Shown: piece by piece, positions 18,501 to 59,745 of the stretch
Numbering within the stretch: the first letter of the stretch is position 1
Layout: every line of letters begins with the position of its first letter
Source: Candidatus Latescibacterota bacterium
Lineage (GTDB): Bacteria; Latescibacterota; UBA2968
DNA length: 64,000 nucleotides
Assembly: GCA_965204375.1 (NCBI GenBank)
Contig: OZ241986.1
Coordinates: 1,824,001 to 1,888,000, forward strand
Direction: 5' to 3'
Position numbers and translations under genes: made by a program
The notes under the pieces: model-generated
The model's input: only the letters and a program-made list of their open reading frames with translations
Database searches by the model: none
Told to the model about the DNA's origin: nothing

Positions 18501-18759
18501 TACCACCCAGATCGCGGAACACCATCAGTGTATATTCGGCTTCTGTTTCTATCAGTTGCGCCGCAGGAGTCGCATATGGGCGTCTTCTGGGAAAATAAGA
18601 AGTGGATCCGGGTGTATCGCGCAAAAAGGCTTCAAGCGTTGACACACCTATTTGCGGGCGCAAACCCGGCGTGGCAAGAGCAATACTCGGGCAGAGCAAC
18701 GCGAGAGAAAACAAAACACTGAGGCCGCGCGACCACAGGTGAATGTGAATAAACTTCAT
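12556..18759 (-). CDS. sprA: SprA-like giant outer-membrane protein (T9SS translocon homolog)
   Basis: About 2070 aa with signal peptide. Motifs: YKGDEDGIIETIEAGN, LFGIKT, WRNVYSLG, DYTINYVTG, AYIDDFEG, WAGIMR, PDTEDLNGNG, EVWMDELR. Beta-strand-rich C-terminus ending IGFQ. Confidence 0.85.
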   Translation of the reverse strand: MKFIHIHLWSRGLSVLFSLALLCPSIALATPGLRPQIGVSTLEAFLRDTPGSTSYFPRRRPYATPAAQLIETEAEYTLMVFRDLGGTPYGLPVIISLGDFMRYKFYHDTHRLALERLGGRLDEDGEGEGIIDVKIPIRVPQRLSAITGEGAANLTIRGYRRIELSGLSQYTLGQAQAALTRTSRFPTINFEQEARLTVEGSIGDRILVSLEQDSERQSFDLTEGLRLQYKGDEDGIIETIEAGNTTLALPGTRLIGFSGGSRGGLFGIKTRGRVGAINFTVVTSQDKSSSGRQTFTGQGQTGQGQGRADAIPDYRYIENTYFFLDNTYRENFRNGLLPAPGDRVNEQSVRVFINDYNAQNDLEDSAIPGIAYLVWNNGSPDEGASRRSDKGVEEGTFHELDPSEFTPLPEGYLIHNRGSISRGYTLAVAYQTASGQNFGDIQFIPDPGNPDKKIQLKLIKARQQRPTDPTWGLAWRNVYSLGGRNISPEGLFVGIFRNVPGENPQDNQEGRSYLEIFGLDRHTNGSSESSPPDRLIDIGTGNEIPGLSLARGHLVFPFLEPFGEEGLGAPDLEVRVPGIYNETNTSNRQEAGRYELRVSSTSKSTEYNLGFLGLVENSEVVRLNNRTLTRDTDYTINYVTGRLKFIGDAENEVSDPSSDLDISYQTKDQFGFGQSKSLLGVRLERPFDDQYSLIGMTLLYGSQSTASPRVRVGQEPTRTILWDANARFRMQPKLLSDLVNSIPLVNTQAPSSIDMDFEIAQSLPNPNTKNVAYIDDFEGALNSTAFAIGKIGWNRASVPIRNSRMLTLPQGRLTWYNPIDRDRASLSRIQPTRDDISAEQDIVDILKLRFDPARSNGFPIRSQNNENGIPQQSWAGIMRYVNGLDLSRSKFLELWIRGDDGHLHIDLGDISERVRLPLDHPMYNDPSDRERFPSGFRTEDKPIGGLPTGDDIVIDEEDIGLDGLTDAEETEVFRKIFPGVTVPNDPSGDNFEDVDQNTTDILRRYPSGLNGTEGNRAERQSRPDTEDLNGNGFLDQRESFIRYSVDLSSNRGLSSASGSFIGPSMLVPGTESDLFPELGGITDPPWRLLRIPLKGQDAPRTFEGSPDTTFASEIDFVRVWFEHNDTTSVEIYTFSATGSEWQEDPVAFGQLSGDFQVSTIGTNNSFYESPPGLEREIDPTTGIRLSENSLVLEFVDLYPGESISASRSFAAGEDYTEYGVMTLFLHGGNPADPTYGTNFSDAADSLSTGPSPIEFFMRFAPINDDSLNYYEYRSLVYRGWAEETNTVRLDLEVMSQLKGQLLGLQATEQVSDTVSVSLRRGDFLARYDKEGNRIEIDVDGRTYIVRGNPALASIRAFTVGIRNRGDEILIGENEVWMDELRVDDIRKKPALSALADTRITLADLGNLTVNLERRSGDFQDLQGRASGNTTTRFNFDSQFNIDKFFPKEWNTSMPVRFSYNRYTSSPRIRPGSDIVLTPEQKINESDVRSQTRFTISLRKRPAREDPSLLSRILFDKASTSLNYSSDASTTGAITQRRRSLNENLNGNMTYNQVWSQREALAIFKWVPFYKPLKEAQFFYLPSSINYNLRFNRGVSDQTSFRAIAGDTSNVIDTVRETFNLTESYAIKLSPFRSLNADYSLTLNRDLRNGYALTQLQFGREISRNQSLNFRYTPRISNWITVNPSYSATYTDRFEIGGERVQYGSVRRGLTVNSQQTANARINLNLPSLFQRWTRKTGKDDGFSILQWIGKVGGRLQNVTSSVSQNKSNNLFGLTARPSLAYQFGFQDTIQVPIVVASTGTRTNASNVRRQAQVSSGIRLPLGLNFNTSANYSENERTGNTLGKDDQVIFPKFDASWRGLERVPLIGWFWVSSNATFGYQESRTRRGDGSLSLSSRYLTSDAREISYNPLFQWSARWKGDVNTTFSRRQSSNDEIRYQRNVTADTASVQPTLADRLIGTTLTENGTLQADVRYSLRGRFQRTLDLTLSFSRNLNTQTEMPRSAEPDVPAEPIIRQNSTSWSVSLGTQYAFSSRFTGGTTFRHERRKDHLRDLTNVTWDFRFWGEIGFQ

Positions 18760-18825
18760 AAGGACTTTGGGAAACAGGCGGAAAGTTGTATGAGCGTGCG
18801 GGTAATAGGTCGTTAAACAAAGTAC

Positions 18826-18853
18826 ATAATAGCACAAGCCACATGAAAGTCAA
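18826..18853 (-). promoter_or_regulatory. Putative promoter of the sprA operon
   Basis: On the minus strand: TTGACT, 16-nt spacer ending TGC, TATTAT (extended -10). Confidence 0.5.
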
Positions 18854-31800: not shown

Positions 31801-34800
31801 ATGAGACAGACGAGTCTGTTTTTCTTTTTATTCATAGCCCTGGCATTCTCAGCCAGTGCTGTTTTTGCCGGATCAACCGGTAAAATTGCGGGCAAGGTCG
31901 TGGATAAATCCACGGGCGAGACCCTGCCCGGTGCCAATGTCGTTATTGAAGGCACCACATTGGGCGCAGTAACAGATCCCGATGGTAATTATTTCATCAT
32001 CAATGTGCCGCCGGGTTCTTATACCGTCAATGCGAGTATGGTCGGCTATCACAAAGCCACGCAAACCAATGTGCGGGTCTTTATCGACCTGACCACAACG
32101 GTAAATTTCTCCGGTGAATTTGGTCTTGTTGAAGAGACCATTCAACTGGCAGAGATCACAGTGGTTGCCGAACTCCCGGTGGTACAACCCGATATTTCCG
32201 CCAATGTCGCCAATATCTCCGCACAAGACGTCGAAAACCTGCCATTGATCAGCGTGAACGAAGTCGTGCGATTAGAGGCGGGTGTGCTGTCCACTGCTAA
32301 TGGCGACTTGTCGATTCGAGGCGGCGATTTGAATGAGATCGCCTTCTCAGTCGATGGCCTGTCCATGCGAGATGGCCGCGAAAACGAACCGTATTCAACG
32401 GTGAGTTATACCTCAATCAAAGAAATGAGCGTGCAGTCGGGCGGGTTCAACGCCGAATACGGCAACGTGCGTTCGGGCCTGGTCAATATCGTGACCAAAG
32501 AAGGCGACAAGCAACGCTACAACAGCGATGTGTTGTTGCGGTACAGCGGCGCACAGCGCGATTATTTTGGCCCGCTACCCAATAGCCCAAACAGCTATTT
32601 CTGGCGCCCATTCACCGATCCCGATGTAAAAAACGTGGGCAGCCATTCGCCCGAAAGCAAATGGGATGTGTACACGCGGCGGCAGTATCCGCAATGGGCC
32701 GGGTGGAACACCATTGTGAGACGCTGGGCTGACGCCCCTGCCGATCCGTATCACGGTGTGGGCGTGAGAGACACTGGCGTAGATGAATCGACTTTGCCGA
32801 CCAGTGAATTACAAGTAGATGATGCAGTCATCACAGAGTTGTTCGAATGGTATCGCCGCAAAGACCTGGAAGTTCGCAATGCGGATTTCGATATCGACCT
32901 GGGTTTTGGGGGGCCTTTAATACCCGGAATGGGCAATCGCCTTGGCGGTCTGCGGTTCTTTGCTTCGGGCAAGCGCGAGCGCAGAGCGTATATGATGCCC
33001 CGCGTGATTGATGAATACGAAAACGACTGGGGCCGCGTGAAGGTCACGTCGGATATTCGCAGCAGCATGAAGTTAAGTGTCGAGGTTATGTCCGGCAAAG
33101 AATTTGGACTGACGCCAAACAGAAGCGGCTTCCCCGGTATGTTGCGAGGCAACCAGGAATTGGGGAGCAGGCTTAACAACGACGACCGAATTTGGAGCGA
33201 TCACGTCGATAACACCCTTCAGATCAAGCGCAACAATATTGGCCTCAGCTTTTCACACGTGCTGAGTCCCAGAACATTTTACGAGTTCCGCGTTCAGAGG
33301 ATGCAATCGGACTATTTGACCGAAAAGTATCCCGACCGCGATCTGAAGGCTGTTGAAAAGACCATTCCCCGCAATTCGGACTTCGCGCCTCCCAATCCGT
33401 CTTTGCAGGTTTCAGAGGTCACGCAAAATCATATCGGTTTGACTGGCGCGCCTCTGGGCGGCTGGTTTTTGAAGAACGAAATTTTTGTCGATGGCCTGGA
33501 ATTCGGTGGCCACTGGGCCGAAGGACGCGACGACTCTGAAGTGGTAGCCTATACAACGCGGTTTGACATCACGAGCCAGCGCAGCCAGGTCGCGCAGTTT
33601 AAGGCGGGTTTTGAATGGATTGCCAGCGATTACGATGTCAACCACGGAAGATATGAGCTATTTTTCAAGAACAACGCAGCTCCCAAATACGTATGGCAAC
33701 GCACTCCTCAGCAATTTGCTGCATACGTGCAGACCAAGCTCGAATTCAATGCCATGATCGCCAATCTCGGCGTGCGTCTGGATCACTGGAATGCGAGTGG
33801 CGAGTGGTGGGTGTACGAAGATTTTTCATCGGCATTTGGAGCCAAAATCGGCAAAGACAATCTCGAGGAAGCACTCGATCAGACGCCGGTCAAGAAGTTG
33901 ACGTATTTAAGCCCACGCTTGGGCATTTCGTTCCCGGTGACAGCAGACAGCAAATTGTTTTTCAACTATGGACATTTCCGCCAGATGCTCAACCCGCACA
34001 ATCTCTTCCTCGTGAACGAAGTCAACACCGGTGCGGTGTCGCAGATCGGCAATCCCAATCACCCCATGCCGCGCACGATCAATTACGAACTCGGCTTTGA
34101 GCAAAATTTGTTCGACCGGTATTTACTGCGCTTGAGCGGCTATTACAGAGCCAACGACGACCAGGCAATTGGCGTGCGCTATACCAATCTGGATCAAACC
34201 GTGGCCTACTCGCTTTTTGAGCCCCTCAACTACGACGATATCCGGGGCTTTGAAATGACAGTGCGAAAACGCAGGGGCAAGTGGTTTGGCGGATTCGTCA
34301 ACTATACGTATATGCAAACTAAGGGCGGCAACTTTGGTCGGCGCGAACTGTTTGAAAACCGCCAGACACAGGCCACTTTTGACGCGACCTCAACACGGCA
34401 CTATCAGAGCCGTCCCGTCAGCCGTCCCTTTGGTAGAATGGGACTGGAATTTTACACGCCGCGAGACTTCGGTCCCCAGGTCTCAGGGTTTTATCCCCTG
34501 AGCAATTGGGACATGTCTCTGGTGGGCAACTGGCGAGCCGGTCAGCACTTTAATTGGTACGGTCCAGAAGCTGGGGCTATCCCCGGTCTGACGAATAATG
34601 TTCAATTCACGAGTATTAGGAATCTAGATTTGCGCCTGACCAGGCAATTTGCGATGATGGGCGTCCGGGCAATGTTCTTTTTAGACGTCGATAATGTATT
34701 GAACCTCAAGCGTCTGAATAACGCATCTGATGGCCCTTCCGGCAGCGACCGAGACTGGGAATTCTACATGTCGTCCTTGCATTTACCAGAAGACACATTC

Positions 34801-35172
34801 GGCGAGTTTGAACCTACTTATGCGTTCATTCCCGGCAATGACTCGCCCGGCGCTTTCAGAGATTACGGCACGGAGTTTGTGCCCATTGAAATTGTCAATG
34901 CAGTCAGTGAACTGCCCGCCAATGGATTGCCCGGCGACGCGGAAATCACGGCTGGACTGCCTACGGGTCTGGAATCCGACCGCCGCGTGTTGTGGTATGT
35001 GCAGGAAACTGGGCAATATCACGAATATCAAAATGGAAACTGGGCGCAGGCCAATCAGGACTTTGTAAATGAAGTCCTGGACAACAAACTGTATATCGAC
35101 ATGCCCAATAACGACTTTATCTGGTTCTTGAACCCGCGCCGGGTGAACCTGGGCTTGCGGTTCTCGTTCTAA
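31801..35172 (+). CDS. TonB-dependent receptor with N-terminal carboxypeptidase-regulatory-like domain
   Basis: Signal peptide; GKIAGKVVD...LPGANV...TDPDGNY; plug IRGG...VDG and GGFNAEYGNVRSGLVNIVTKEG; SPRLGISFPV; C-terminal PRRVNLGLRFSF. Confidence 0.92.
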   Translation: MRQTSLFFFLFIALAFSASAVFAGSTGKIAGKVVDKSTGETLPGANVVIEGTTLGAVTDPDGNYFIINVPPGSYTVNASMVGYHKATQTNVRVFIDLTTTVNFSGEFGLVEETIQLAEITVVAELPVVQPDISANVANISAQDVENLPLISVNEVVRLEAGVLSTANGDLSIRGGDLNEIAFSVDGLSMRDGRENEPYSTVSYTSIKEMSVQSGGFNAEYGNVRSGLVNIVTKEGDKQRYNSDVLLRYSGAQRDYFGPLPNSPNSYFWRPFTDPDVKNVGSHSPESKWDVYTRRQYPQWAGWNTIVRRWADAPADPYHGVGVRDTGVDESTLPTSELQVDDAVITELFEWYRRKDLEVRNADFDIDLGFGGPLIPGMGNRLGGLRFFASGKRERRAYMMPRVIDEYENDWGRVKVTSDIRSSMKLSVEVMSGKEFGLTPNRSGFPGMLRGNQELGSRLNNDDRIWSDHVDNTLQIKRNNIGLSFSHVLSPRTFYEFRVQRMQSDYLTEKYPDRDLKAVEKTIPRNSDFAPPNPSLQVSEVTQNHIGLTGAPLGGWFLKNEIFVDGLEFGGHWAEGRDDSEVVAYTTRFDITSQRSQVAQFKAGFEWIASDYDVNHGRYELFFKNNAAPKYVWQRTPQQFAAYVQTKLEFNAMIANLGVRLDHWNASGEWWVYEDFSSAFGAKIGKDNLEEALDQTPVKKLTYLSPRLGISFPVTADSKLFFNYGHFRQMLNPHNLFLVNEVNTGAVSQIGNPNHPMPRTINYELGFEQNLFDRYLLRLSGYYRANDDQAIGVRYTNLDQTVAYSLFEPLNYDDIRGFEMTVRKRRGKWFGGFVNYTYMQTKGGNFGRRELFENRQTQATFDATSTRHYQSRPVSRPFGRMGLEFYTPRDFGPQVSGFYPLSNWDMSLVGNWRAGQHFNWYGPEAGAIPGLTNNVQFTSIRNLDLRLTRQFAMMGVRAMFFLDVDNVLNLKRLNNASDGPSGSDRDWEFYMSSLHLPEDTFGEFEPTYAFIPGNDSPGAFRDYGTEFVPIEIVNAVSELPANGLPGDAEITAGLPTGLESDRRVLWYVQETGQYHEYQNGNWAQANQDFVNEVLDNKLYIDMPNNDFIWFLNPRRVNLGLRFSF

Positions 35173-35209
35173 GAAGATTTTTGAATCGAGACTTATCAGG
35201 AGAACTATT

Positions 35210-37384
35210 ATGAACAGATTGTTAAAACCGCTGGTCGGAACAGCTTTTGCACTCGTGGCTCTGGTGTTCTGGAGCCAGCCAACCGAAGTGCAGGCGCAGG
35301 CAGAGTTGATGTGGCTGGATGTGGGCGATTATCACTATCGATACGCATCGACAGGCACAGAGCCTTCGATCACACAACCCCCGTTTCGGGCACGTGTGAA
35401 ATACTGGCCCGGTATTTATGCTCGGGAAGGTGGCACACATGTGCGCAGCCGTCATTATATCGGAGTAAGAGATTTTACCGATGAAAACGGACAAGTCTGG
35501 TCGTTCAAAGTCGCCCGTGCAGGACCTCGCGTTTTTGACCTGGGCGAACACTTTGCATTGCCCATGGAACTGATTGGCAAGTTTGAAAAGCCAGATGTAT
35601 TTGTCGATGGATTTCAGACATTCGTCAGACCCACAGTGCTCACGCGCGTTGATCCCTCTATTCCGTCAGATCGCATGATTGTTCGCGGAGCCAATACCAA
35701 TGTGGGTATCACATGGGAAGAGAAGATATACGCATTTTCCAATCCCTATCACGACGACTATCACATCAGGGAAATGACATGGACCAATACGGGCAATATC
35801 GATGACGATGAAGAGATCGAATTGCCCGACCAGACGTTGAAAGAAGCGATGTTCTCATTTGCAGCCAAAGAACACCTCTGGGGACCCCGCTCCGTTACAA
35901 GTGCTGGTGTCTCGGGTACGATGTGGGATTATGTGGGCGACGGCAAGGAAGATGTGGGCAAATGGGAAGGCATACGCGCCACGCTCGGCTGGATAGGCAA
36001 TGGTACACGCGTGTCCTTTCTAAACCGCATCGGCGGACCTATCTGGAGAGGTGGACGCGGAAATGCTAACTATCGGATTACAGAAGGCGATTCCATCGGT
36101 CGGCTCGGCGGTGCTTATATGCTGACCCGCGCGACCTTGCACGCAGATACAAGCCCAACGGATCGGAGCAATGATCAGGGCCAGCCCAGAACGACGGGTT
36201 TCACCCGCGGCGGCGATGCAATTACCAACCCGTCGTTTGGCGATGCCGAGCAGATGAAAGACACATACCATTTTATGCATCCGGACCTGACCTATGCCGA
36301 GTATGGCAACCCGGGTACCGATGGTCACTTTTTTCCGCACGAAGCCGACCGTTCAGCACCGCCGGATCCTGCCGGTCCTTTCGATTCGGAATCGTGGTAC
36401 GAACGCATGGCCGCTCAAATCGATATTGATCGCATGAGAAGTGGTGGTATGGTGCCAGCGTTTGCTTTTGGTCCCTACACCCTGGCTCCTGGCGAAAGTG
36501 TCAATATGGTCTGGATTGAAGGCATGTACGGGCTGGACCGGGCTGTGGCTGTTGCAGTGGGCAAGGCTTACAAAGAGTCGGGCTATGACGATACACTGCC
36601 CATTACCTATGAGGGCCAGACCCACACGAAAAATCGCTGGGTGCTGGGCACCCGGGATTCGATCTATCACATGATCCGCAGAGCGACGGCAAACTGGCAA
36701 TCGGGTTATAATATTCCGCATCCCCCACTACCGCCCAGAGTTTTCAATGTGCAATCCGGTTCTGATCAAATTGTGCTTTCGTGGGAGACCTTTGCCAATG
36801 CCAATCACACGGGTTTTGAGATCTGGCGTACGCGCAATTTTTATGAAGGCACTGTGGATGACCTGTGGGAATACCAATTGATCGCTACCCTGGGACCAGA
36901 GGCACGCGAATACGCAGACACGGACGTGGTGCGCGGCATCAGTTATTTCTACTATATCCAATCCGTAGGACAGGTGAACAGCGATGGAACGGGAATGACG
37001 CCCACCGGCATGGTGATGAAAAGCAGCCGGTATTATACGCAGACCTATGATCCCGCGTTTTTGAAGCGCCCGCCCGGCGGCGTAATGAGTGACGTGCGCG
37101 TTGTACCCAATCCTTATGTACTGGAAGCCGATCAGAATATTCGATTCCCAGACCAGCAGGACAAGCTGGCATTTTTCGAAATTCCCGGGGAATGCACCAT
37201 CCAGATTTTCAGCGAACTGGGAGAATCGATTTTCACCATTGAGCACACAGACGGCACAGGGGATGAATTTTGGAACCTGACCACAGAATCGAATCAGGTG
37301 ATTACGAGTGGCATTTATTTTGCCGTGATCACAGACACTCAGACCGGCGAAAAGATAATCAAAAAATTCGTCGTTATTCGTTAA
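35210..37384 (+). CDS. Secreted protein with FN3-like domain and T9SS/FlgD-type C-terminal domain
   Basis: Sec signal (VQA-QA) with no lipobox Cys. FN3-like segment PPLPP...IVLSW...GFEIWR...YADTDVVRGISYFYYIQ. CTD: VVPNPY...CTIQIF...WNL...SGIYF...KKFVVIR. Confidence 0.75.
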   Translation: MNRLLKPLVGTAFALVALVFWSQPTEVQAQAELMWLDVGDYHYRYASTGTEPSITQPPFRARVKYWPGIYAREGGTHVRSRHYIGVRDFTDENGQVWSFKVARAGPRVFDLGEHFALPMELIGKFEKPDVFVDGFQTFVRPTVLTRVDPSIPSDRMIVRGANTNVGITWEEKIYAFSNPYHDDYHIREMTWTNTGNIDDDEEIELPDQTLKEAMFSFAAKEHLWGPRSVTSAGVSGTMWDYVGDGKEDVGKWEGIRATLGWIGNGTRVSFLNRIGGPIWRGGRGNANYRITEGDSIGRLGGAYMLTRATLHADTSPTDRSNDQGQPRTTGFTRGGDAITNPSFGDAEQMKDTYHFMHPDLTYAEYGNPGTDGHFFPHEADRSAPPDPAGPFDSESWYERMAAQIDIDRMRSGGMVPAFAFGPYTLAPGESVNMVWIEGMYGLDRAVAVAVGKAYKESGYDDTLPITYEGQTHTKNRWVLGTRDSIYHMIRRATANWQSGYNIPHPPLPPRVFNVQSGSDQIVLSWETFANANHTGFEIWRTRNFYEGTVDDLWEYQLIATLGPEAREYADTDVVRGISYFYYIQSVGQVNSDGTGMTPTGMVMKSSRYYTQTYDPAFLKRPPGGVMSDVRVVPNPYVLEADQNIRFPDQQDKLAFFEIPGECTIQIFSELGESIFTIEHTDGTGDEFWNLTTESNQVITSGIYFAVITDTQTGEKIIKKFVVIR

Positions 37385-37399
37385 GAATGGAGTATTTCA

Positions 37400-38455
37400 A
37401 TGACCAGAAAATTTCTTACACTTGTCGCGCTGAGTCTGATGTGTCTGACGCCGCTCTATGCACAAGACCCGGTGGATACGACAGATCCAGACGATCTTCC
37501 CGTGCCCGAACCGGGACAGGATCTTCCGCGCGAACGCCGCGCACAAGCGGGCTTTAAGTTTTTGAGCGTATCGCCCGATGCGCGTGCCGCCGCCATGGGC
37601 GATGCGTATTCCGCATTGCGAGTGGGGGCATCGGCGATGTTTTACAACCCCGCATCAATGGCGTATGCCACGCGCAAGTTTCAACTCGCCGCCGGGCAGG
37701 TCCAGTGGATCGCAGACGTGACCTACAATATGGGCAGCGTTGCATTGAATACGGATTGGGGCGTTTTCGGGTTGTCAATGGTTGCCGTCGATTACGGCGA
37801 TTTTGAACGCACCATTCGCGCGGACAACGAAAAGGGATTCCTCGACGTGGGCACGTATAGCCCCTCTGCCTGGGCAATCGGACTCGGTTATGCCCGCGCA
37901 ATTACCGACCGCTTTTCTGTGGGCGGCAATATACGCATCGCCAAGCAATCCTTCGGCAATGTTCCCGTGGGGCTTGAAGGCGCATCGCCTGTAAATAAAA
38001 CTTTTGACGAGCGTTCGACCATTGTCGATTTTGGCGTGCTATACTGGACGGGATATAAGAGCCTGACATTGGCGTTGAACACGCGAAACTTCTCTCAGGA
38101 AAACAAGTACAGCGAAGAGAGTTTTGAATTGCCGCTGACATTCCGCATGGGGTTGGCGATGGATTTGATCGATCTCACGGAGATGGATAAGGATACCCAT
38201 TCCATCATTCTATCGGTGGACACCGAGCGCCCACGCGACTTTTCCGAGCAAGTCAAAATCGGGGTGGATTATACGATTATGAAAACCCTGTCTTTGCGCG
38301 CCGGATATATAACGCCAACCGATGAACAGGGCATCTCTCTGGGCGTCGGCTTTGGCCGCGACCTGGGCAGCGTGGATCTGCGCGTAGATTATGCGTACAC
38401 CGATTTTGGCGTATTTGACAATGTCAACCGCTTGACGCTTCAGGCGGGCTTTTAG
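37400..38455 (+). CDS. PorV/PorQ family outer-membrane beta-barrel
   Basis: FLSVSPDARAAAMGDA, FYNPASMA, alternating beta-strands, LSLRAGY, VDYAY, C-terminal Phe. Confidence 0.85.
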   Translation: MTRKFLTLVALSLMCLTPLYAQDPVDTTDPDDLPVPEPGQDLPRERRAQAGFKFLSVSPDARAAAMGDAYSALRVGASAMFYNPASMAYATRKFQLAAGQVQWIADVTYNMGSVALNTDWGVFGLSMVAVDYGDFERTIRADNEKGFLDVGTYSPSAWAIGLGYARAITDRFSVGGNIRIAKQSFGNVPVGLEGASPVNKTFDERSTIVDFGVLYWTGYKSLTLALNTRNFSQENKYSEESFELPLTFRMGLAMDLIDLTEMDKDTHSIILSVDTERPRDFSEQVKIGVDYTIMKTLSLRAGYITPTDEQGISLGVGFGRDLGSVDLRVDYAYTDFGVFDNVNRLTLQAGF

Positions 38456-38475
38456 CCTCTATCCCCGCCATTTTG

Positions 38476-38511
38476 AAAAGGGAGCCTGTTTTTTGACCGG
38501 CTCCCTTTTTT
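38476..38511 (+). terminator. Terminator after the receptor-CTD-PorV triad
   Basis: AAAAGGGAGCC...GGCTCCCTTTT followed by a T-run. Confidence 0.8.
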
Positions 38512-38542
38512 ACGTGACGTCCACGGCTAACCGACTCCTACC

Positions 38543-40513
38543 ATGGCAGAATCCGCACAAAATATTCAAACATCAAGGCCGGTCGGCAGGAGTTTACGCA
38601 CGTATCGAACCGCTGTTGCGTCGGTCGCCATGATCCTGGTCAGTGTGCTGTGGAATGAATGGATGCCGTATTACACATCGGGATCCAATATCAGCCGCAG
38701 CCATTTTCCCGTAGCACTCTACTATCCCTTTTTAATTTTGTGTATATGCAACTTGCTGGCAAATCATCGGCGATCAACCTGGGCGTTGACGCGGTCGGAA
38801 TTGCTGGTGGTCATGGCTTCTGGGCTGGTCGGCATCTCGGTGTCTTACGACGGGATCAGCGGGCATCTGATCGGCGTGGTAGCCGCGCCTTATTATTTTG
38901 CCTCAACGGAAAACGGCTGGACCACGTACTTGCTCGAACACATCCCGAACTGGCTGGCGCCGACCAATGCGGGCGGAGAGATGACGCGGTTTTACGAGGG
39001 TGGAAAGGGAACATTCCCCTGGCGTGTATGGGTCACACCGATATTCTGGTGGACGTGTTTTTTGGGCGCAATGGGATTCGCGGTATTCAGCGTCGTGGTG
39101 ATTTTGCGAAAGCAATGGGTGGATTACGAGCGGTTGGCATATCCGCTTGTCGAGGTGGGCAGCCTGCTGACCGAGACCGAGCCTGGCGGCACGCTGGAAA
39201 AAATGCTCCGATCCCCATTGTTCTGGATCGCATTTGGCCTTGTGATGGCGTTAAAATTGTGGAATATCGGATCTTATTTTTCGCCGGCATTCCCGCATAT
39301 CTCTATTGAAGGAATGAACTGGCGGGCTTTTCCCGATTTTCCAGCATTGCCCTTTCGCCTCAGTTTTTACGCCATAGGTTTTGGCTATTTTGCGCGGTTG
39401 GATGTGTTGTTCAGCGTGTGGTTTTTTATCGTCTTGACGGCATTTCAGATCTATGCCTCGAATATTTTTGGATATCCCCTCGGTTCATCCAGTCTGCACT
39501 GGGAAAATGAGTTATTAAACTGGCAGAGCATGGGCGCACTCATTTTTCTCGCGGTGTGGGGCTTGTGGATGGCGCGCGCACATCTGAAAGCCGTGTGGCG
39601 CAAAGCGTGGGATCCGAGTTGTGAAATAGATGACCGCGGGGAGTTATTATCATATCGCACGGCTGTATTTGGCCTCGTGCTCTCACTCGTATTTGCAACG
39701 TGCTGGCTGGTCGCAACCGGCATGGCATTATGGGTTGCGATAGTATTTCTGATTCTGGCGATGTTGTTATTTTTGGGCCTGGCACGCGCTGTGTCCGAAC
39801 TGGGCCTGGTCTATGCCTATTATCGGTTGGAGCCAAATGACGCGGTCGTGCAGGCATTTGGCTCGGCATCCATCATGGGGGTTTCGAGCATCACCGCACT
39901 GGCATTTATGCGGGTATTCAATTTTTTTCCCGACATCGGCAAAGGCTTTTTGATGCCGTCGTTTTCGCAAGCGGTGAAAGCAGTGGATAAGACCGTAGCC
40001 CCCCGGCGGATCACAGGCGTGATCTGGGCGTCGCTCGCCGTGGGCTTTGTGATTTCGATTGTCAACACGCTCTACTTGAGTTATGAATACGGGGCTTATA
40101 ATCTGGGAAATATGGGCCTCAAAAACGTCGGCCCGCGGGCATTTGATTTTGCGATAAACGCCATCCGCAATCCCCTGGGACTCGGAGGTGATGGCCGCGT
40201 GATGTGGGCGGGAGTTGGTGCTGGTACAATGGCGATTTTGACCGTCATTCGCTACTGGATACCCGCCTGGCCCCTGCATCCAATTGGTCTGGCCATGCAA
40301 GGGAATTACGGCGTGAGTAAAACCGTATTCTCGGTATTTATTGTGTGGTCAATCAAAGTTGTCGTGATGAAGATGGGCGGTGTGCAGCTATACGAAAAAG
40401 GGAAACCGTTTTTCATCGGCCTGCTGGCAGCACAAGCGTTCAGCACGGGATTGGTATTTGTCATAGATTGCATCTGGTTCCCCCTGCAGGGACACAATGT
40501 ACACAATTTCTAA
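38543..40513 (+). CDS. Polytopic membrane protein, DUF6785/DUF6784-like (putative transporter), copy 1
   Basis: Many TM segments; ELLVV, LRKQWVDYERLAYPL, WPLHPIG, KPFFIGL. Confidence 0.7.
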   Translation: MAESAQNIQTSRPVGRSLRTYRTAVASVAMILVSVLWNEWMPYYTSGSNISRSHFPVALYYPFLILCICNLLANHRRSTWALTRSELLVVMASGLVGISVSYDGISGHLIGVVAAPYYFASTENGWTTYLLEHIPNWLAPTNAGGEMTRFYEGGKGTFPWRVWVTPIFWWTCFLGAMGFAVFSVVVILRKQWVDYERLAYPLVEVGSLLTETEPGGTLEKMLRSPLFWIAFGLVMALKLWNIGSYFSPAFPHISIEGMNWRAFPDFPALPFRLSFYAIGFGYFARLDVLFSVWFFIVLTAFQIYASNIFGYPLGSSSLHWENELLNWQSMGALIFLAVWGLWMARAHLKAVWRKAWDPSCEIDDRGELLSYRTAVFGLVLSLVFATCWLVATGMALWVAIVFLILAMLLFLGLARAVSELGLVYAYYRLEPNDAVVQAFGSASIMGVSSITALAFMRVFNFFPDIGKGFLMPSFSQAVKAVDKTVAPRRITGVIWASLAVGFVISIVNTLYLSYEYGAYNLGNMGLKNVGPRAFDFAINAIRNPLGLGGDGRVMWAGVGAGTMAILTVIRYWIPAWPLHPIGLAMQGNYGVSKTVFSVFIVWSIKVVVMKMGGVQLYEKGKPFFIGLLAAQAFSTGLVFVIDCIWFPLQGHNVHNF

Positions 40514-44459: not shown

Positions 44460-44468
44460 GTGAAAATC

Positions 44469-46427
44469 ATGGCAGAGCGATTCAAACAAATCTCGGAAAC
44501 AACACCCGTGCGGGCGGTGACAACGCGATCGGTAATTGCATCGATAGTGGTGATTACTACAAGCGTGCTGTGGAATGAGTGGATGCCGTACTACACGTCG
44601 GGATCGAACATCAGCCGCAGCCATTTCCCCATGGCGTTTTTCTTTCCGTTTTTGATAGCCTGTACACTCAATCTGGCATTGAATCACTTGCGGGCGGGAT
44701 GGGGGCTTTCGCGGTCGGAACTGCTGGTGGTTCTGGGATCGGGCTTTGTGGGGATCGCGCTGGCTTACGACGGGTTGACCGGACACTTCTTCGGCGTTCT
44801 GGCAGCCCCTTATTATTTTTCATCCGTGGAAAACGGATGGGGTTTTATACACGACACCATCCCCGCATGGCTCGCACCCTCGAATGCCACGGGTGAAATG
44901 ACGCGATTTTTTGAAGGCGGGGGCGGGTCCCCTCCGTGGCGCGTGTGGGCGGTACCCATTTTCTGGTGGATGTGCTTTTTCGGCGCAATGGGCTTTGGGG
45001 TATTTTGCCTGGTCGTAATTTTGCGAAAGCAATGGGTGGATTACGAGCGCCTGGCATATCCACTTGTCGAAGTCGCACAATCTCTTGCAGAGACAGAAAA
45101 GGGCGGCGGATTGGAAAAAACCTTTCGCTCTCCCCTATTCTGGATCGCATTTTCCCTGGTCATGCTCTTGAAATTGTGGAATATCGCGTCTTATTTTACC
45201 CCGGCATTTCCGCATATAGACATTGAAGAAACACTGTGGCAACCGATTCCAGATTTTCCCTGGATGGTAAACCGCCTGAGTTTCTACGCCATTGGATTCG
45301 GGTATTTCGCGCGCCTGGATGTGCTGTTCAGCGTGTGGTTCTTCATTATTTTGACGGCGTTTCAGGTATATGTATTCAATATATTCGGGTATCAAATCGG
45401 TGCTGCAACCCGGCACTGGACGAGCGATGCCCTGGGCTGGCAAAGCATTGGTGCCTTGATCTTTTTATCTGCCTGGGGATTATGGATGGCGCGCGCACAT
45501 TTGAAAGCCGTGGTGCGAAAAGCCCTGTATCCCAATTGCGAGGTGGATGATAGCGGCGAGTTATTGTCCTATCGCATGGCGGTGTTCGGCTTATTGGGAG
45601 CATTCGCATTTGTCTCGGCGTGGCTATATACGGCGGGCATGCCCTTGTGGGTGGTATTCTCCTTTCTCATTTTGGCGATGCTGCTATTCCTGGGCCTTGC
45701 CCGCGCCATCGCAGAATTGGGCCTGGTCTATGTGTATTATCGCATTCAGCCTCACGATGCCGTGGTACAGGCATTTGGTTCGAGTATGGTCGGGCTTTCC
45801 GGTGTGGTGGTCCTCGGGTTTATGCATGTGTTTAATCAGTGGCCCGATATTGGCAAGGGATTTTTGATGCCGCCGTTCACGCAAGCGGTAAAAGCGGTAG
45901 ATAAGGTCGTCAGCCCGCGGCGAATTACAGCGGTACTGTGGCTGGCACTGGCACTGGGCTTCACCATCTCAATAGTGGATACGCTGTATTTGAGTTATGA
46001 ATACGGAGCCTATAATTTGGGCAATATGGGGATGAAGAAGACGGGACCTGTGGCGTTTGATTTTGTGATCACGGAAATTCGGAATCCCATGGCGCCCGGC
46101 GGCAATGGCAGGGTCATGTGGGCATTTATCGGGATGGGACTGATGGCGATTTTGACGACCATTCGCTACTGGGTGCCGTGGTGGCCCCTGCACCCGATTG
46201 GCCTGGCTATGCAGGGGAACTACGGCGTGAGCAAGACCGTATTTTCGATTTTTATTGTCTGGTCAATCAAAGCGGTGGTCATGAAAATGGGCGGCGTGCA
46301 ATTGTACGAAAGGGGAAAGCCGTTTTTCATCGGCCTGCTGGCAGCACAGGCGGTGAGCACGGGCCTGGTCTTTATCATAGATTGGTTCTGGTTCCCCCTG
46401 CAAGGGCATAATGTGCACAATTTTTAG
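44469..46427 (+). CDS. Polytopic membrane protein, DUF6785/DUF6784-like (putative transporter), copy 2
   Basis: Paralog of 38543-40513 with identical blocks SVLWNEWMPYYTSGSNISRSHFP and FPLQGHNVHNF. Confidence 0.7.
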   Translation: MAERFKQISETTPVRAVTTRSVIASIVVITTSVLWNEWMPYYTSGSNISRSHFPMAFFFPFLIACTLNLALNHLRAGWGLSRSELLVVLGSGFVGIALAYDGLTGHFFGVLAAPYYFSSVENGWGFIHDTIPAWLAPSNATGEMTRFFEGGGGSPPWRVWAVPIFWWMCFFGAMGFGVFCLVVILRKQWVDYERLAYPLVEVAQSLAETEKGGGLEKTFRSPLFWIAFSLVMLLKLWNIASYFTPAFPHIDIEETLWQPIPDFPWMVNRLSFYAIGFGYFARLDVLFSVWFFIILTAFQVYVFNIFGYQIGAATRHWTSDALGWQSIGALIFLSAWGLWMARAHLKAVVRKALYPNCEVDDSGELLSYRMAVFGLLGAFAFVSAWLYTAGMPLWVVFSFLILAMLLFLGLARAIAELGLVYVYYRIQPHDAVVQAFGSSMVGLSGVVVLGFMHVFNQWPDIGKGFLMPPFTQAVKAVDKVVSPRRITAVLWLALALGFTISIVDTLYLSYEYGAYNLGNMGMKKTGPVAFDFVITEIRNPMAPGGNGRVMWAFIGMGLMAILTTIRYWVPWWPLHPIGLAMQGNYGVSKTVFSIFIVWSIKAVVMKMGGVQLYERGKPFFIGLLAAQAVSTGLVFIIDWFWFPLQGHNVHNF

Positions 46428-46443
46428 AGAATGCCCATACGCC

Positions 46444-48966
46444 CTATAGCCACTCGTCCATCCCCGCGTCTTGCAGAGCACCCAACAAATGGGGCACGCC
46501 AAAAAACAGCAGGCTCAAGTACATCGGACTCAGTCCCACTGCGCCGCGCCTTTTGGGATCGTCGCTCCAATCCTGTGATTCGGCCAGGCGGCGCAGCAGT
46601 TGCCGGCCCACCTCCAAATAGCCTCGCTCGCCTGTCAGCCTGTACGCATAGCTCAAGTGGCGACACAGCACCCCACCATAGCGCTGCTTCCATGCCATTT
46701 CGGGATCGAAAACACCAGGCCCACCGCAAAACCAATCCACGGCCCGCAGATAGCATTCGGCCACATCGGTCCGGTCGGTCAGTCGGTGCAGCAATTCGAG
46801 GCCAATCATTAAATAGTGGGTCTGATAGCCCTTTTGATCGGCGTAGGACAGCACGTGTTTGCCCGCGGCAGAAGCCCCGCCCAGAGCCTCGTGCTCAGCC
46901 GGAGTAAAAGGTGCTGCGGTGCCCATCTCCACAGCCAGGGTCGTGCCTTCGGTGGCCATGCCGTAGGGCGCCTGGTCGGGCAGCCGATCGGGGGTGGAAA
47001 CCTGAAAGCGCTTGTGCCAGCTGCCGTCGTCGTTCTGACCCCGGGCGATGACCTGAAAAATTTCTTCGGCGCGCTGTTTGAAACGCGCTTTGCCCGTTAG
47101 TTCCCACAAATACAGCAGACCGCGCAAAGTGTTGGCAATGCTGCGCAAACTAAAGGAGAAACGGGGATCTTCGCTCCAGCGATAGCGCAGGAAAAATTCG
47201 CCAGCTTCCCCGAGCACCTCCAATGTCCGGTGGTCGCCCGTCAAGTAGTAATAATCGATCCAGTTGTCGATAAAGGTGTGCGAAGCACAAGGCTCGTCGC
47301 CAAAGTGGTCGATGCTGTGTCGGAAACAACCACCGACCCGATACGGCCTGAGCGGGTGGTAGTGGCAGGTATCGACATCCATCGAGTGCCGGGTCATGGC
47401 CTCACCGAGACGGAACCAACGCCCTGCCCCGCTGCGCAAATACTGGATCCACACCCCGTGGCGCGGGTCCCACTCGCTGTTGCACCAGCCCCACCGGCCC
47501 CGGAAGCGCCAGTCCCCGGTCGATTCCTCCCAGGCCACGAGCACATCACCCCAGTCAAAAAAACCGCGCCAACGGTTGACTTCAATGCTGCGCGCCATCC
47601 ACTCGAGGAAGCCGTCGAGCATGCGCTCGGAGTGCGGAAAGGCATCTGCCGCGCGGACCGCAAAGCCGCCTGTGACCTGGCAGTGGGCCATCCAGCCGGG
47701 ATCAACCGCGACGTGTGGCCAATCGAGCAAAGCCGTCAGCCGTTGGGGAGCTTCTTCGCTGGTATTGCGCTGGAAGTAATCGATGAAAAATTCCGAGGTT
47801 TTGGCCGTGCCCAGGCCATCGCTGTACACGCCTTCTCCCTCGTGCCAGGCCACTTCCTCGGCATAGCGTTTGAAATGCAGTCGCCCGCCGTCCGGATCTT
47901 TCCACAAAAACACATCGATTCCCCCTCGATCCACGCCCAGCGCTTTGGGGTATTCCTCGGCCATATAGCGCAACGCCACCCCCACTCCGGCTTCCTCACT
48001 CTCCAACACGGCCCACCCACCGGCCCGTTCGCCTTCTGCTATCCTCTCTGAGCACCCGCCGCGCCGCCGATCCAGGCAGAAGTGGCGATCCTGGCGCTGA
48101 GCCAAAAGCAAGCCTTCGCCCTGACCCAGAATGCCTTCCATCCATCGATTCCCACCTACCCGATAGCGTCGTTTTCCCGCCCAATCCACCGGGATTCGCA
48201 CCGCCAGTTCCCGCAATTCGGTCTGCCCTGGATCGCAGGCCACCACGACGGTGTGCAGGACCCGCAAAAAGGCGTGACCAGCAAAGGCGTATATCCGCGT
48301 CACAAAACGAAAGGGTTGATAGCCGACGTAGTGGTGCATGGGCGCCTCGGATTCCAGGGCGCCTTCGCAGCGAATCACCGCCCGCAGAGGCCCGGATTCT
48401 TCCACCTGGACCCGGTATGCGCTTTCCCCCAGCGATGCCCGGCACATCCCACCCATGCCGTAAATCCGTCGCTGGGTCTCCCCGCTCTCAAAAGCCTCGC
48501 AAATATCGGCCCAACTGTCGCCGCCTTGCGAACTCACAGCGATTTCTTCGACAAAGCCATCGGCCTCCTGCCGTCCCAATGATACCGCGTGTACCAGGCC
48601 ATATCGCTGCCGGCTCACGGCAAAGCGCAGGGGGCCGGTACACACGACAATGCGCTCGTCGCTCTCGCTTATTTGCAGCCGATTCGCCGGAGCAGCACGA
48701 GGGGCTTCGCCGGCATAACACAAGTGGTAAACCGCCGATCCGACCATGTCGGCTTGAAAATCGATCAGGACCCACTTGATACTGCCGTCGGGCCAATGGC
48801 TCAGTGGACGACTTTGCAGGATTATACCCCGTCCCTGAGCATCCTCCAACCACAAATCGGCGCATTCGGCTACAGCCCCTTGTGGCAGGGGTACGCCCCG
48901 GGTCACAGGCCACGCACGGCGTTCGATCCCGCTCTCTTCCTGGACAGTCAATGTTAGACGTTGCAT
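46444..48966 (-). CDS. YetA/PcRGLX (exo-rhamnogalacturonan lyase)-like protein
   Basis: PVTRGVPLPQG, PLSHWPDGSIKWV, VEESGPLRAVI, WRGFFDWGD, WCNSE, AMTRHSMDVD, DYYYLTGD. ATG 48966 follows GGAGG; no signal peptide. Confidence 0.65.
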   Translation of the reverse strand: MQRLTLTVQEESGIERRAWPVTRGVPLPQGAVAECADLWLEDAQGRGIILQSRPLSHWPDGSIKWVLIDFQADMVGSAVYHLCYAGEAPRAAPANRLQISESDERIVVCTGPLRFAVSRQRYGLVHAVSLGRQEADGFVEEIAVSSQGGDSWADICEAFESGETQRRIYGMGGMCRASLGESAYRVQVEESGPLRAVIRCEGALESEAPMHHYVGYQPFRFVTRIYAFAGHAFLRVLHTVVVACDPGQTELRELAVRIPVDWAGKRRYRVGGNRWMEGILGQGEGLLLAQRQDRHFCLDRRRGGCSERIAEGERAGGWAVLESEEAGVGVALRYMAEEYPKALGVDRGGIDVFLWKDPDGGRLHFKRYAEEVAWHEGEGVYSDGLGTAKTSEFFIDYFQRNTSEEAPQRLTALLDWPHVAVDPGWMAHCQVTGGFAVRAADAFPHSERMLDGFLEWMARSIEVNRWRGFFDWGDVLVAWEESTGDWRFRGRWGWCNSEWDPRHGVWIQYLRSGAGRWFRLGEAMTRHSMDVDTCHYHPLRPYRVGGCFRHSIDHFGDEPCASHTFIDNWIDYYYLTGDHRTLEVLGEAGEFFLRYRWSEDPRFSFSLRSIANTLRGLLYLWELTGKARFKQRAEEIFQVIARGQNDDGSWHKRFQVSTPDRLPDQAPYGMATEGTTLAVEMGTAAPFTPAEHEALGGASAAGKHVLSYADQKGYQTHYLMIGLELLHRLTDRTDVAECYLRAVDWFCGGPGVFDPEMAWKQRYGGVLCRHLSYAYRLTGERGYLEVGRQLLRRLAESQDWSDDPKRRGAVGLSPMYLSLLFFGVPHLLGALQDAGMDEWL

Positions 48967-49171
48967 ATCTCCCTCCGCTCGTGAACACACCGGGTATTTT
49001 AAAACAGCTACTTAAAAAAAGCCAACATTTTACGCACTGCATTTGGGCAAGTTGGCAATGCACAAACACAAATCTTTCTTGTACTTGACTCATAGCCTAA
49101 AAGCTGGTATTGTTATGACTTCGAAAAATAAGTGGTGCTTTTGCTCAAACCCTTTTTTAAAAATACCCTTT

Positions 49172-52712: not shown

Positions 52713-52742
52713 AAAGAGCAGGCAATAACCTGCTCTTTTTTT
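52713..52742. terminator. Bidirectional terminator between convergent genes
   Basis: AAAGAGCAGG-CAATAA-CCTGCTCTTT followed by a T-run. Confidence 0.8.
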
Positions 52743-54868: not shown

Positions 54869-55000
54869 TGTGTTGCTCCAATTTGTTGCGGGAGATGGGG
54901 GAAGTATCCTGCTAAAATATAGCCAATTTTTATACGCCCTGCAATGTGATGGGTTCACAAACCACGAAGTCACGCATTTCTCAAGCCTTTTGATTGACGT

Positions 55001-55126: not shown

Positions 55127-55166
55127 ATTTTGAGTCAACTTCAACCTCCTGTGCCAAAAAAATCAT

Positions 55167-55248
55167 TGCTAATTATTTCGCTATTTGGACTTGACAGCGA
55201 ATTTTTAATAGGATATTTTTCCATAACTGATATGCTAATTATTTCGCA
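55167..55248 (+). promoter_or_regulatory. blaI promoter flanked by two identical 15-bp operator candidates
   Basis: TGCTAATTATTTCGC at 55167-55181 and 55233-55247; between them TTGACA (55191), 17-nt spacer, TATTTT (55214). Confidence 0.75.
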
Positions 55249-55282
55249 TCGTATCATTCAGGCAAATAAAAAGGAGCTAAAA

Positions 55283-55666
55283 ATGGCAAGACTGCGACAA
55301 GAGGGATTGACCGCCCGTGAAATGGAACTCATACAGGTACTCTGGCAACAGAAAGAAGCAACCGTCGAAATGATCCAGGCAAAATTGCCTGACCGATTAG
55401 AAGGATCAACCATTCGCACACTCCTGCAAATCATGGAAGACAAAGGCTATGTGACGCATGAAAAGCAAGGACGCGCCAATGTGTACCGCCCCATAATCGA
55501 ACAACAGAGGGTCCAATCCTCTGCAATGAAGCACATCATTCAAAAACTATTTGGCGGATCAACCGAACTCTTGTTGGCGCGGCTGGTTGAAGACGAAGAG
55601 ATAGACATGGACGACGTAGCGCGATTGCGTGAAAAACTCAAGCAACGCAAAGGGAGCACATCATGA
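55283..55666 (+). CDS. BlaI/MecI/CopY family transcriptional repressor
   Basis: LTAREMELIQVLW...STIRTLLQIMEDKGYV...GRANVYRP...LFGGS. ATG 55283 follows AAGGAG. Confidence 0.93.
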   Translation: MARLRQEGLTAREMELIQVLWQQKEATVEMIQAKLPDRLEGSTIRTLLQIMEDKGYVTHEKQGRANVYRPIIEQQRVQSSAMKHIIQKLFGGSTELLLARLVEDEEIDMDDVARLREKLKQRKGSTS

Positions 55667-59703: not shown

Positions 59704-59736
59704 ACTTTTTATGGCATTGATGATTATTTGAAAAGG
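59702..59736 (+). repeat. 35-bp intergenic linker, copy 1
   Basis: AGACTTTTTATGGCATTGATGATTATTTGAAAAGG; 32/35 identical to 63385-63419. Confidence 0.85.
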
Positions 59737-59745
59737 AGACACATC

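Follow-up and report, generated by a model that had tools for sequence, protein, structure and literature searches.

A repeated receptor, partner and PorV-family barrel cassette in Candidatus Latescibacterota, a candidate counterpart of SusC/SusD

We analyzed a 64,000-nucleotide stretch of the genome of a Candidatus Latescibacterota bacterium (assembly GCA_965204375.1, contig OZ241986.1, positions 1,824,001 to 1,888,000 of the forward strand), which sits within a single 6.34-Mb contig; this whole stretch is called the window, and positions are counted from its first letter. It holds a cassette of three genes that encode a TonB-dependent receptor, a partner protein with a type IX secretion system (T9SS) C-terminal domain (CTD), and a small outer-membrane barrel of the PorV/PorQ family. 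The cassette is real, conserved, highly repeated and apparently undescribed. It is probably a functional counterpart of SusC/SusD in those phyla of the Fibrobacterota-Chlorobiota-Bacteroidota (FCB) group that have few or no SusD genes, and the best reading, which we favor on balance, is that the partner is a T9SS-exported, barrel-tethered lid or capture protein for the import of glycan fragments.

The open reading frame (ORF) list places the receptor (1123 aa) at 31801-35172, the partner (724 aa) at 35210-37384 and the private FadL-like barrel (351 aa, also recognized by its family profile) at 37400-38455, all on the plus strand. The first-pass annotation of this DNA had described three co-oriented genes closed by a strong terminator, and both the ORF calls, with gaps of 37 nt between receptor and partner and 15 nt between partner and barrel, and the folding of the hairpin agree with it. 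The intrinsic terminator (38475-38512, plus strand; a 12-bp stem, to 38510, then a U run) lies in an 87-nt intergenic stretch that folds at -28.1 kcal/mol (z -5.1; 0 of 200 shuffles equal or better). It should be noted that the hairpin at 38475 is missing from the output of a simple terminator scan, and that a promoter scan returned 8 sites versus 9.8 expected. RNA-library contigs of relatives were taken from 4 of 24 listed runs, picked for containing this stretch; missing flank cover and small word shares were not used as evidence of level or habitat. These contigs span the receptor-partner junction in 3 of the 4 runs and the partner-barrel junction in 2; two of them stop near the terminator, at 38458 and 38485, and one continues across it, which gives a weak hint of one transcript for the cassette.

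Because the genome carries 17 receptor-partner-barrel cassettes, the arrangement is not a matter of chance; the first-pass annotation had missed both this repetition and the fact that no canonical T9SS motor is found. All 16 intact close paralogs of the receptor, together with one split receptor (two ORFs of 257 and 819 aa; L031:5105-8450, minus strand, G000 5818101-5821449), are the first gene of such a cassette, and 17 of the 22 PorV-like matches in the genome are the third gene of one. Thirteen more distant receptors have no partner or barrel neighbors. One SusC/SusD pair is encoded in the genome (L036:2817-7041, minus strand), and two further SusD models found no match there. Within the phylum, the SusD model PF07980 matched 24 of the 101 Latescibacterota genomes searched, with one copy per genome and spread over four genera, and the remaining 77 had no match, consistent with the earlier suggestion that the cassette is independent of SusD; PorV-family matches occur in 140 of 140 phylum genomes (5-17 among the matches listed per genome). 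Ten of the 17 cassettes (L025-L034) have an extra gene of 231-271 aa directly upstream of the receptor, which the window cassette does not have; by weak PF13505 matches in 8 of the 10, and one faint PorG match, its product is a small 8-stranded outer-membrane barrel.

We then counted related loci by tblastn over 100 loci, 17 of which are close kin of the window and thus not independent. The receptor lies directly upstream of the partner in 75 of the 77 related loci with enough DNA, the barrel lies no more than 1.5 kb downstream of the partner in 77 of 79 (directly in 72), and all three genes are intact in 68 of the 69 loci that are long enough; the triad is thus conserved in other genomes, as had been proposed. 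The exceptions are two orphan partners (L089 and L094) and one locus with a gene in between (L111). Two tandem cassettes (L046:8069-13277 and L088:5293-10440) have the order receptor-partner-barrel-barrel-receptor-partner, with the second barrel ahead of its receptor. Among 20 genome loci that match the partner protein, 18 are titled Ca. Latescibacterota or Latescibacteria (64-97% identity) and one Calditrichia. The partner family is wide (1,502 representatives at E <= 1e-30, a count that includes matches to the FN3 region or the tail only), and at the protein level alone homologs were found in Caldithrix abyssi DSM 13497, Rhodothermaceae bacterium RA, Ignavibacterium sp. and Melioribacteraceae. 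The ESM Atlas returned only unnamed clusters for the partner, in which the labels Fidelibacterota, Zixiibacteriota and Gemmatimonadota rest on few members and serve as leads only; a plasmid search with the partner gave no match.

The first gene product is a TonB-dependent receptor. It carries a signal peptide, a CarboxypepD_reg-like N-terminal extension, a plug and a barrel, with the CarboxypepD_reg and Plug domains both over their Pfam cut-offs (Plug PF07715, 35.9 bits versus 23.9) and a TonB-box-like strand ahead of the plug, as read by eye. The predicted structure (predicted local distance difference test score, pLDDT, 85.8) has 22 long barrel strands, counted from the secondary structure of the model, and very long extracellular loops that sum to about 510 residues. 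All 43 listed Foldseek rows were TonB-dependent transporters of all kinds, HasR-HasA among them, none of which was close (9-13% identity), and several TonB proteins (TonB_C) are encoded in the genome. The receptor is not a SusC/RagA protein: its TIGR04056 score is 53.3 bits versus a cut-off of 368.25, for the N-terminal part only, with no TIGR04057 signature listed, whereas the true SusC of this genome reaches 547.5 bits on TIGR04056.

The partner has a Sec-type signal peptide and an N-domain without a named family. There is no cysteine in its first 75 residues and hence no lipobox, in line with the earlier description of a non-lipidated protein, and a pattern search found a credible lipobox in none of the 17 cassette partners of the genome. 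The predicted structure (pLDDT 90.7) has three parts, all on the plus strand: a beta-supersandwich N-domain (residues 30-499, 35297-36706), which is the candidate capture or lid domain; an FN3-like linker (about residues 507-604, 36728-37021); and an Ig-like tail (about residues 622-724, 37073-37381), which is the predicted barrel-binding surface. The FN3-like domain noticed at first reading was recovered in the model and in structural FN3 matches, and Pfam fn3 gave no match to this region. The N-domain fold resembles the N-terminal domains of enzymes of glycoside hydrolase (GH) families GH94, GH15 and GH65 (best Z 17.8, root-mean-square deviation (rmsd) 4.1, 268 aligned residues, 10% identity), and galactose mutarotases and a GH174 fucanase are also among the matches, as is the non-catalytic YidC periplasmic domain (Z 11.8). 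A GH94/GH15/GH65 enzyme was rejected, with only the N-terminal beta domain aligning and no (alpha/alpha)6 catalytic barrel in the model. The protein was also rejected as SusD/RagB, given that it has no SusD Pfam match, a beta-rich model that is not of the helical TPR type, and no cysteine for a lipoprotein signal. A Pfam scan of the 17 other partner proteins of the genome found no family over cut-off and one faint He_PIG match; six of these 17 have faint PorZ-tail matches.

The first-pass annotation had read the partner's C-terminus as a T9SS type-A-like CTD; the CTD fold held, while the type A label is loose. The tail superimposes on the CTD of PorZ (5m11) with Z 13.0, rmsd 2.1 and 24% identity over 91 aligned residues. 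On the type A model TIGR04183 it scored 18.4 bits versus 23 in one scan and was borderline (22.6-23.1) in another, and on the type B model CHU_C it scored 24.8 versus 27. We compared the tails of the 17 cassettes with the nine canonical type A proteins of the same genome in a leave-one-out test. Cassette tails scored 70-121 bits on their own profile and the canonical tails no more than 27; conversely, canonical tails scored 42-137 bits on their own profile and cassette tails no more than 34. These scores define the cassette tails as a separate, PorZ-like T9SS tail class, distinct from canonical type A. The partner was therefore rejected as a strict type A cargo (TIGR04183/PF18962 not clearly passed, no grouping with canonical tails). 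It was likewise rejected as a strict type B cargo, with CHU_C under cut-off and a linked barrel that matches NF033709 rather than the PorP/SprF model TIGR03519, and as PorZ, for which the best score in the genome is 28 bits versus 260.

The small barrel belongs to the PorV/PorQ family (NF033709, 194.5 bits versus a cut-off of 90), as do the other cassette barrels of the genome (16 of 16 over cut-off, 137-178 bits). Its earlier designation as a PorV paralog is correct at the family level and loose beyond it, since the barrel is neither PorV proper (NF033710, 71 bits versus 250) nor PorQ proper (NF033711, 78 bits versus 220); PorV is its only solved sequence relative. At another site in the genome, a housekeeping PorV candidate is encoded two genes upstream of a type A protein of the canonical kind, with 167 bits on NF033710 versus 34-80 for the 17 cassette barrels. 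We modeled barrel residues 45-351 with the FN3 and tail regions of the partner, along with three controls. The tail-barrel model scored 0.92 versus 0.00 for the best control; of 157 solved complexes, 116 reach the pass mark, and of 215 mismatched pairs, 2 do. Its runs share at least 98% of contacts, and the partner pLDDT is at least 80. The modeled interface is almost wholly made by the tail, on the loops of the barrel, which is the docking that had been expected, and it sets barrel Phe135 beside tail Lys719. In the solved PorV-CTD geometry, PorV F115 is reported to meet RemZ K1110 (PMC10994853). The model reproduces this known geometry, and thus a pass demonstrates likeness to the solved complex and is not proof. 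With this in mind, the modeling argues that the partner tail very probably binds its own small barrel, which is the predicted anchor and shuttle for that tail.

Across the 17 paralogous cassettes (25-36% mean identity) the distance matrices all correlate (rho 0.56-0.77, Mantel p 0.0005, 2000 permutations), suggesting that the cassette duplicates and diverges as a whole unit, and the co-phylogeny envisaged in the first-pass annotation is thus present. Partial correlations among the paralogs are 0.50 for tail and barrel and only 0.30 for receptor and N-domain; the strong signal between these two arises in the ortholog set. For the latter, we used 39 dereplicated cassettes out of 58 complete ones, with near-identical Latescibacterota and other near-duplicates dropped. 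The N-domain correlated best with the extracellular loops of the receptor (rho 0.86; 0.73 on 100 columns), followed by the receptor barrel strands (0.65; 0.56), the small barrel (0.53; 0.41), its own tail (0.46; 0.42), its own FN3 (0.44; 0.40) and the plug region (0.41; 0.33). The resampled 95% ranges of the difference exclude zero for loops minus strands (0.08-0.31), loops minus small barrel (0.18-0.44) and loops minus tail (0.26-0.51). DNA linkage does not explain the signal because loops and strands alternate within one gene. After noise correction, the values were 0.91 for loops/N-domain and 0.95 for tail/barrel, where the tail region is noisy and has just 103 columns. High values were likewise obtained for receptor strands against the small barrel (0.88) and against the plug (0.90), and therefore only the loops/N-domain and tail/barrel signals are read as specific. 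The co-divergence of loops and N-domain supports functional coupling rather than contact, and either direct contact or a shared substrate could yield it. We consider direct contact between N-domain and receptor somewhat likely.

The export route is suggested by the machinery encoded in the genome. The SprA/Sov translocon is a single housekeeping copy at 12556-18837 on the minus strand (TIGR04189, 620 bits versus a cut-off of 200), about 13 kb from the cassette as noted in the first-pass annotation, and is presumed to act on the partner in trans; of 101 phylum genomes, 100 have SprA over cut-off. A PorU-like protein is represented by two matches, of 264 and 80 bits, in one ORF of 1,908 aa (cut-off 420). 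PorZ was not found in the genome (best 28 bits versus 260), and neither was PorP/SprF, for which the genome search gave no TIGR03519 match and cassette barrels scored no more than 21 bits versus 90.55. Complete T9SSs were found only in Bacteroidetes in one study (PMC4793230), and another report notes that the system may exist in other FCB phyla (PMC11285876). Judging from the CTD fold, the presence of SprA and the precedents, it is quite probable that the partner reaches the surface through SprA.

The steps of the favored mechanism can be outlined as follows. All three proteins would cross the inner membrane by Sec, as their signal peptides suggest, and both barrels would be inserted in the outer membrane. 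The partner would then enter SprA tail-wise and be collected by its own barrel rather than by the housekeeping PorV. The tail, which the model places on the extracellular loops of the barrel, would remain uncut and bound there, such that a protein tether would replace the lipid anchor; PorZ on PorQ and type B cargo on PorP/SprF provide the precedent. Swinging on the FN3 hinge, the supersandwich domain may act on the extracellular face of the receptor, either as a lid or as a binding protein kept close by, and help to select the substrate, a step suggested by the co-divergence. Finally, TonB would pull the plug, as is usual for the family, and the substrate would enter the periplasm; no two of the 17 paralogous cassettes would share a substrate. 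In a bolder form, several FCB phyla outside the Bacteroidia would rely on this three-chain importer as their main architecture for uptake, with a lid that is T9SS cargo of a new tail class, held on a private PorV-family barrel beside the receptor and assembled by a SprA-PorV-PorU system without the GldLM motor; we put this forward tentatively, as a proposal that falls somewhat short of even confidence.

Several observations weigh against the tethered-lid reading. Two orphan partners (L089:2489-4699 and L094:235-2448) have an intact tail and no receptor or barrel neighbor; the one at L089 is flanked by two similar genes of 697-699 aa. An 18th partner-type protein of the genome (924 aa; L038:5509-8280, minus strand, G000 4549505-4552279) also has no adjoining barrel and may borrow one in trans. 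This protein has the same tail class, with an end that resembles the partner of the L034 cassette, and is encoded upstream of another, different receptor and of a DUF4249 protein. The tail of the window partner is under or at the type A cut-off and under that of type B, and the tail-barrel score may be a memory of the solved PorV-CTD complex. The same N-domain occurs within longer proteins that bear canonical type A tails (7 of 10 scanned), and thus is not exclusive to receptors, while some stand-alone supersandwich proteins, the mutarotases and the GH174 fucanase, are enzymes. As for the co-divergence, it is expected without any touching if loops and N-domain both adapt to one substrate, and the sequence pairs that enter the correlation are not independent.

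The T9SS motor is a further point on this side. No match to GldM or GldN was found in the genome (96% complete), in a search without a positive control in which GldL was not included; matches to the GldK model stayed below 100 bits versus 350 and had no gldLMN-like neighborhood, likewise without a positive control; and GldM reached cut-off in 0 of 101 phylum genomes, again with no positive control. It was also at cut-off in 0 of 61 genomes in each of two other phyla, and two partial C-terminal matches in one other phylum (69 and 59 bits) show only that a GldM search can ring. Since no positive control rang, the Gld motor is described here as not found, rather than absent. The missing matches matter because energy is concluded to be needed to extract the carrier and its cargo from SprA (PMC10994853). 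SprA, a PorU-like protein, PorV-family barrels and type A cargo in the absence of detectable GldM, GldN and GldK make this a candidate T9SS without the known motor.

Much of this evidence would also fit a partner that is held on its barrel but acts as a surface enzyme or free glycan binder, like SusG or SusE/F, with no stable receptor contact. Carbohydrate-active proteins share the fold, among them mutarotase-like and GH174 enzymes that stand alone, partner orthologs have many conserved residues of polar or aromatic type, the N-domain is shared with other secreted multi-domain proteins, and a common substrate alone could produce the loop/N-domain correlation. However, gene order is strictly one-to-one in all 17 cassettes and in 68 of 69 loci, and accessory enzymes seldom keep such strict order; moreover, columns conserved across 16 paralogs are mostly glycine, proline and aromatic residues with few acidic ones, and hydrolases and IPT/TIG lipoproteins are encoded separately nearby. 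We therefore consider this alternative unlikely, albeit one to be taken seriously.

It is far less probable that the barrel is only a shuttle and that the partner, once let go, picks up its substrate in the medium and comes back to the receptor, in the way that HasA does to HasR. A PorU-like peptidase that could cut tails is present, orphan partners exist, and the affinity of the CTD for PorV has been suggested to fall after exit from SprA (PMC10994853). Yet a housekeeping PorV candidate is already there, the tail is closest to that of PorZ, which is reported to stay uncut (PMC10947112), and known private barrels are described as anchoring their cargo (PMC9143113, PMC12618676). We also give little credence to the possibility that the barrel and partner help the large loops of the receptor to fold, or shield them, with no role in substrate choice. 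In Bacteroidota, the FadL-like BamG is reported to pack on BamA and hold BamH on its loops (PMC12578637, PMC12611786), the supersandwich matches the YidC domain, and the co-divergence fits any direct contact; nevertheless, the BamG model has no match to the small barrel and only a faint one to 1 of 16 paralogous barrels (17.5 bits versus 250), the best folds are domains of carbohydrate enzymes, and the cassette loci are catabolic. A TonB handle, in which the receptor-like barrel pulls the small barrel and cargo from SprA in place of the GldLM motor, with an adhesin or sensor as the partner, seems very improbable: near-universal SprA in this phylum, GldM undetected here and in two other phyla, and several TonB proteins would suit it, but the housekeeping PorV candidate, which must serve nine canonical type A proteins, has no adjoining receptor, the fold of the cassette receptor is that of an ordinary transporter whose loops are large and variable, and the motor searches had no positive control.

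The tethered-lid reading can be set against several known systems. As in SusC/SusD (RagA/RagB), a TonB-dependent receptor with a CarboxypepD_reg-like extension has a dedicated surface partner immediately next to it, in many paralogous copies per genome and with catabolic neighbors. Unlike SusC/SusD, the receptor is no SusC (53 versus 368 bits), a third gene supplies the anchor, and instead of a helical lipoprotein the partner is all-beta and non-lipidated with a T9SS tail. In the Porphyromonas gingivalis T9SS, PorZ, with an uncut tail that falls outside types A and B, is described as held on PorQ (PMC10947112); however, PorZ is a single-copy protein of lipopolysaccharide delivery, whereas the partner here has a supersandwich body, is linked to a receptor and comes in 17 copies. 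Type B CTD cargo is reported to be anchored on cognate PorP/SprF barrels (PMC9143113; PMC12618676). There, too, cargo and barrel are genetically linked and the barrel is both shuttle and surface anchor, as predicted here, but our barrels are of the PorV/PorQ family and the known type B cargo are adhesins rather than receptor partners. The Bacteroidota beta-barrel assembly machinery provides a case of a FadL-like barrel that bridges a large barrel and a surface protein (PMC12578637, PMC12611786). The likeness of BamA-BamG-BamH lies in a large barrel, a FadL-like small barrel and a surface protein on the loops of the latter (predicted here); on the other hand, BamH is a lipoprotein and BamA an insertase.

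The TbpA/TbpB/Slam and HasR/HasA systems also combine, within one locus, a receptor, a partner that is secreted or at the surface, and a gene dedicated to export; they differ from the cassette in their export systems and partner folds and serve iron or heme uptake in Proteobacteria. We conclude that the cassette probably works like SusC/SusD plus PorQ/PorZ and is a member of neither. The first-pass annotation knew of no characterized example of this architecture. In the literature searched, which mostly did not extend to subscription papers, no description of the receptor-partner-barrel unit was found; anchoring of a CTD protein on its cognate barrel is, however, already known from PorP/SprF and PorQ-PorZ, and the new part is thus the coupling to a TonB-dependent importer.

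The genes around the cassette bear on the likely substrate. Just past the terminator lies a polytopic membrane protein of the DUF6785/DUF6784 type (38543-40513, plus strand), followed by a phosphotriesterase-family protein, a sulfatase, a sugar-type carrier of the major facilitator superfamily and a second DUF6785/DUF6784 membrane protein (44460-46427); a PcRGLX-like (exo-rhamnogalacturonan lyase-like) protein (46444-48990, minus strand) converges on this cluster, all as called by Pfam scan where coordinates are given. DUF6785 genes, of which the genome has 46 homologs, occur no more than 8 kb from 12 of the 17 cassettes versus 14% of random places, and the DUF6785/DUF6784 protein is a possible candidate for the inner-membrane importer of the system. 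In distant orthologous loci, for which 68 proteins hand-picked from 152 listed were scanned, the recurrent neighbors are IPT/TIG lipoproteins, canonical type A proteins and GHL10 (8), along with amidase (2), NlpC/P60, GH20, GH18, GH3, NagB, ROK and SSF; FG-GAP/ASPIC proteins, TPR proteins and unrelated housekeeping genes are found as well. Downstream of the cassette in many of these loci (for example, L019:10103-12367 and L048:10027-12604) come an IPT/TIG lipoprotein, then a canonical type A protein some 430 aa long, then a GHL10 hydrolase, which together form a larger conserved locus of peptidoglycan or amino-sugar flavor. Glycan fragments are the likeliest substrate, and the neighborhoods make a carbohydrate reasonably probable: likely sulfated or modified sugars here and, for many of the distant orthologous loci, oligomers of peptidoglycan or N-acetylglucosamine.

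Two other features of the window were observed. At 55130-63381, two large proteins (1346 and 1217 aa) are encoded in tandem behind a BlaI-type repressor and combine a BlaR1/MecR1-like sensor region with Ig-like repeats and, at the C-terminus, a TlpA/ResA-like thioredoxin domain, and at 52742-54973 (minus strand) there is a family B DNA polymerase with an exonuclease domain.

Ignavibacteriales are reported to have many carbohydrate gene clusters and scarce susCD (PMC10576277), and the available text of the Caldithrix abyssi genome paper speaks of TonB receptors only for B12 and thiamine and leaves SusD, fibronectin and secretion unmentioned. The cassette is a concrete candidate for the surface capture of polymer fragments in such SusD-poor phyla, and a marker for utilization loci where tools based on SusC/SusD see nothing. 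With a partner homolog in the named strain Caldithrix abyssi DSM 13497, bench tests look possible. The 17 natural tail-barrel pairs in one genome are material for a study of specificity in a further T9SS tail class. More generally, the cassette ties the T9SS to TonB-dependent import, two systems that have been studied apart, and is a pointer to a T9SS that lacks the known motor. If true, the reading as a three-chain importer assembled without that motor would mean that the SusD problem was solved independently, and would offer a view of the T9SS in its ancestral form.

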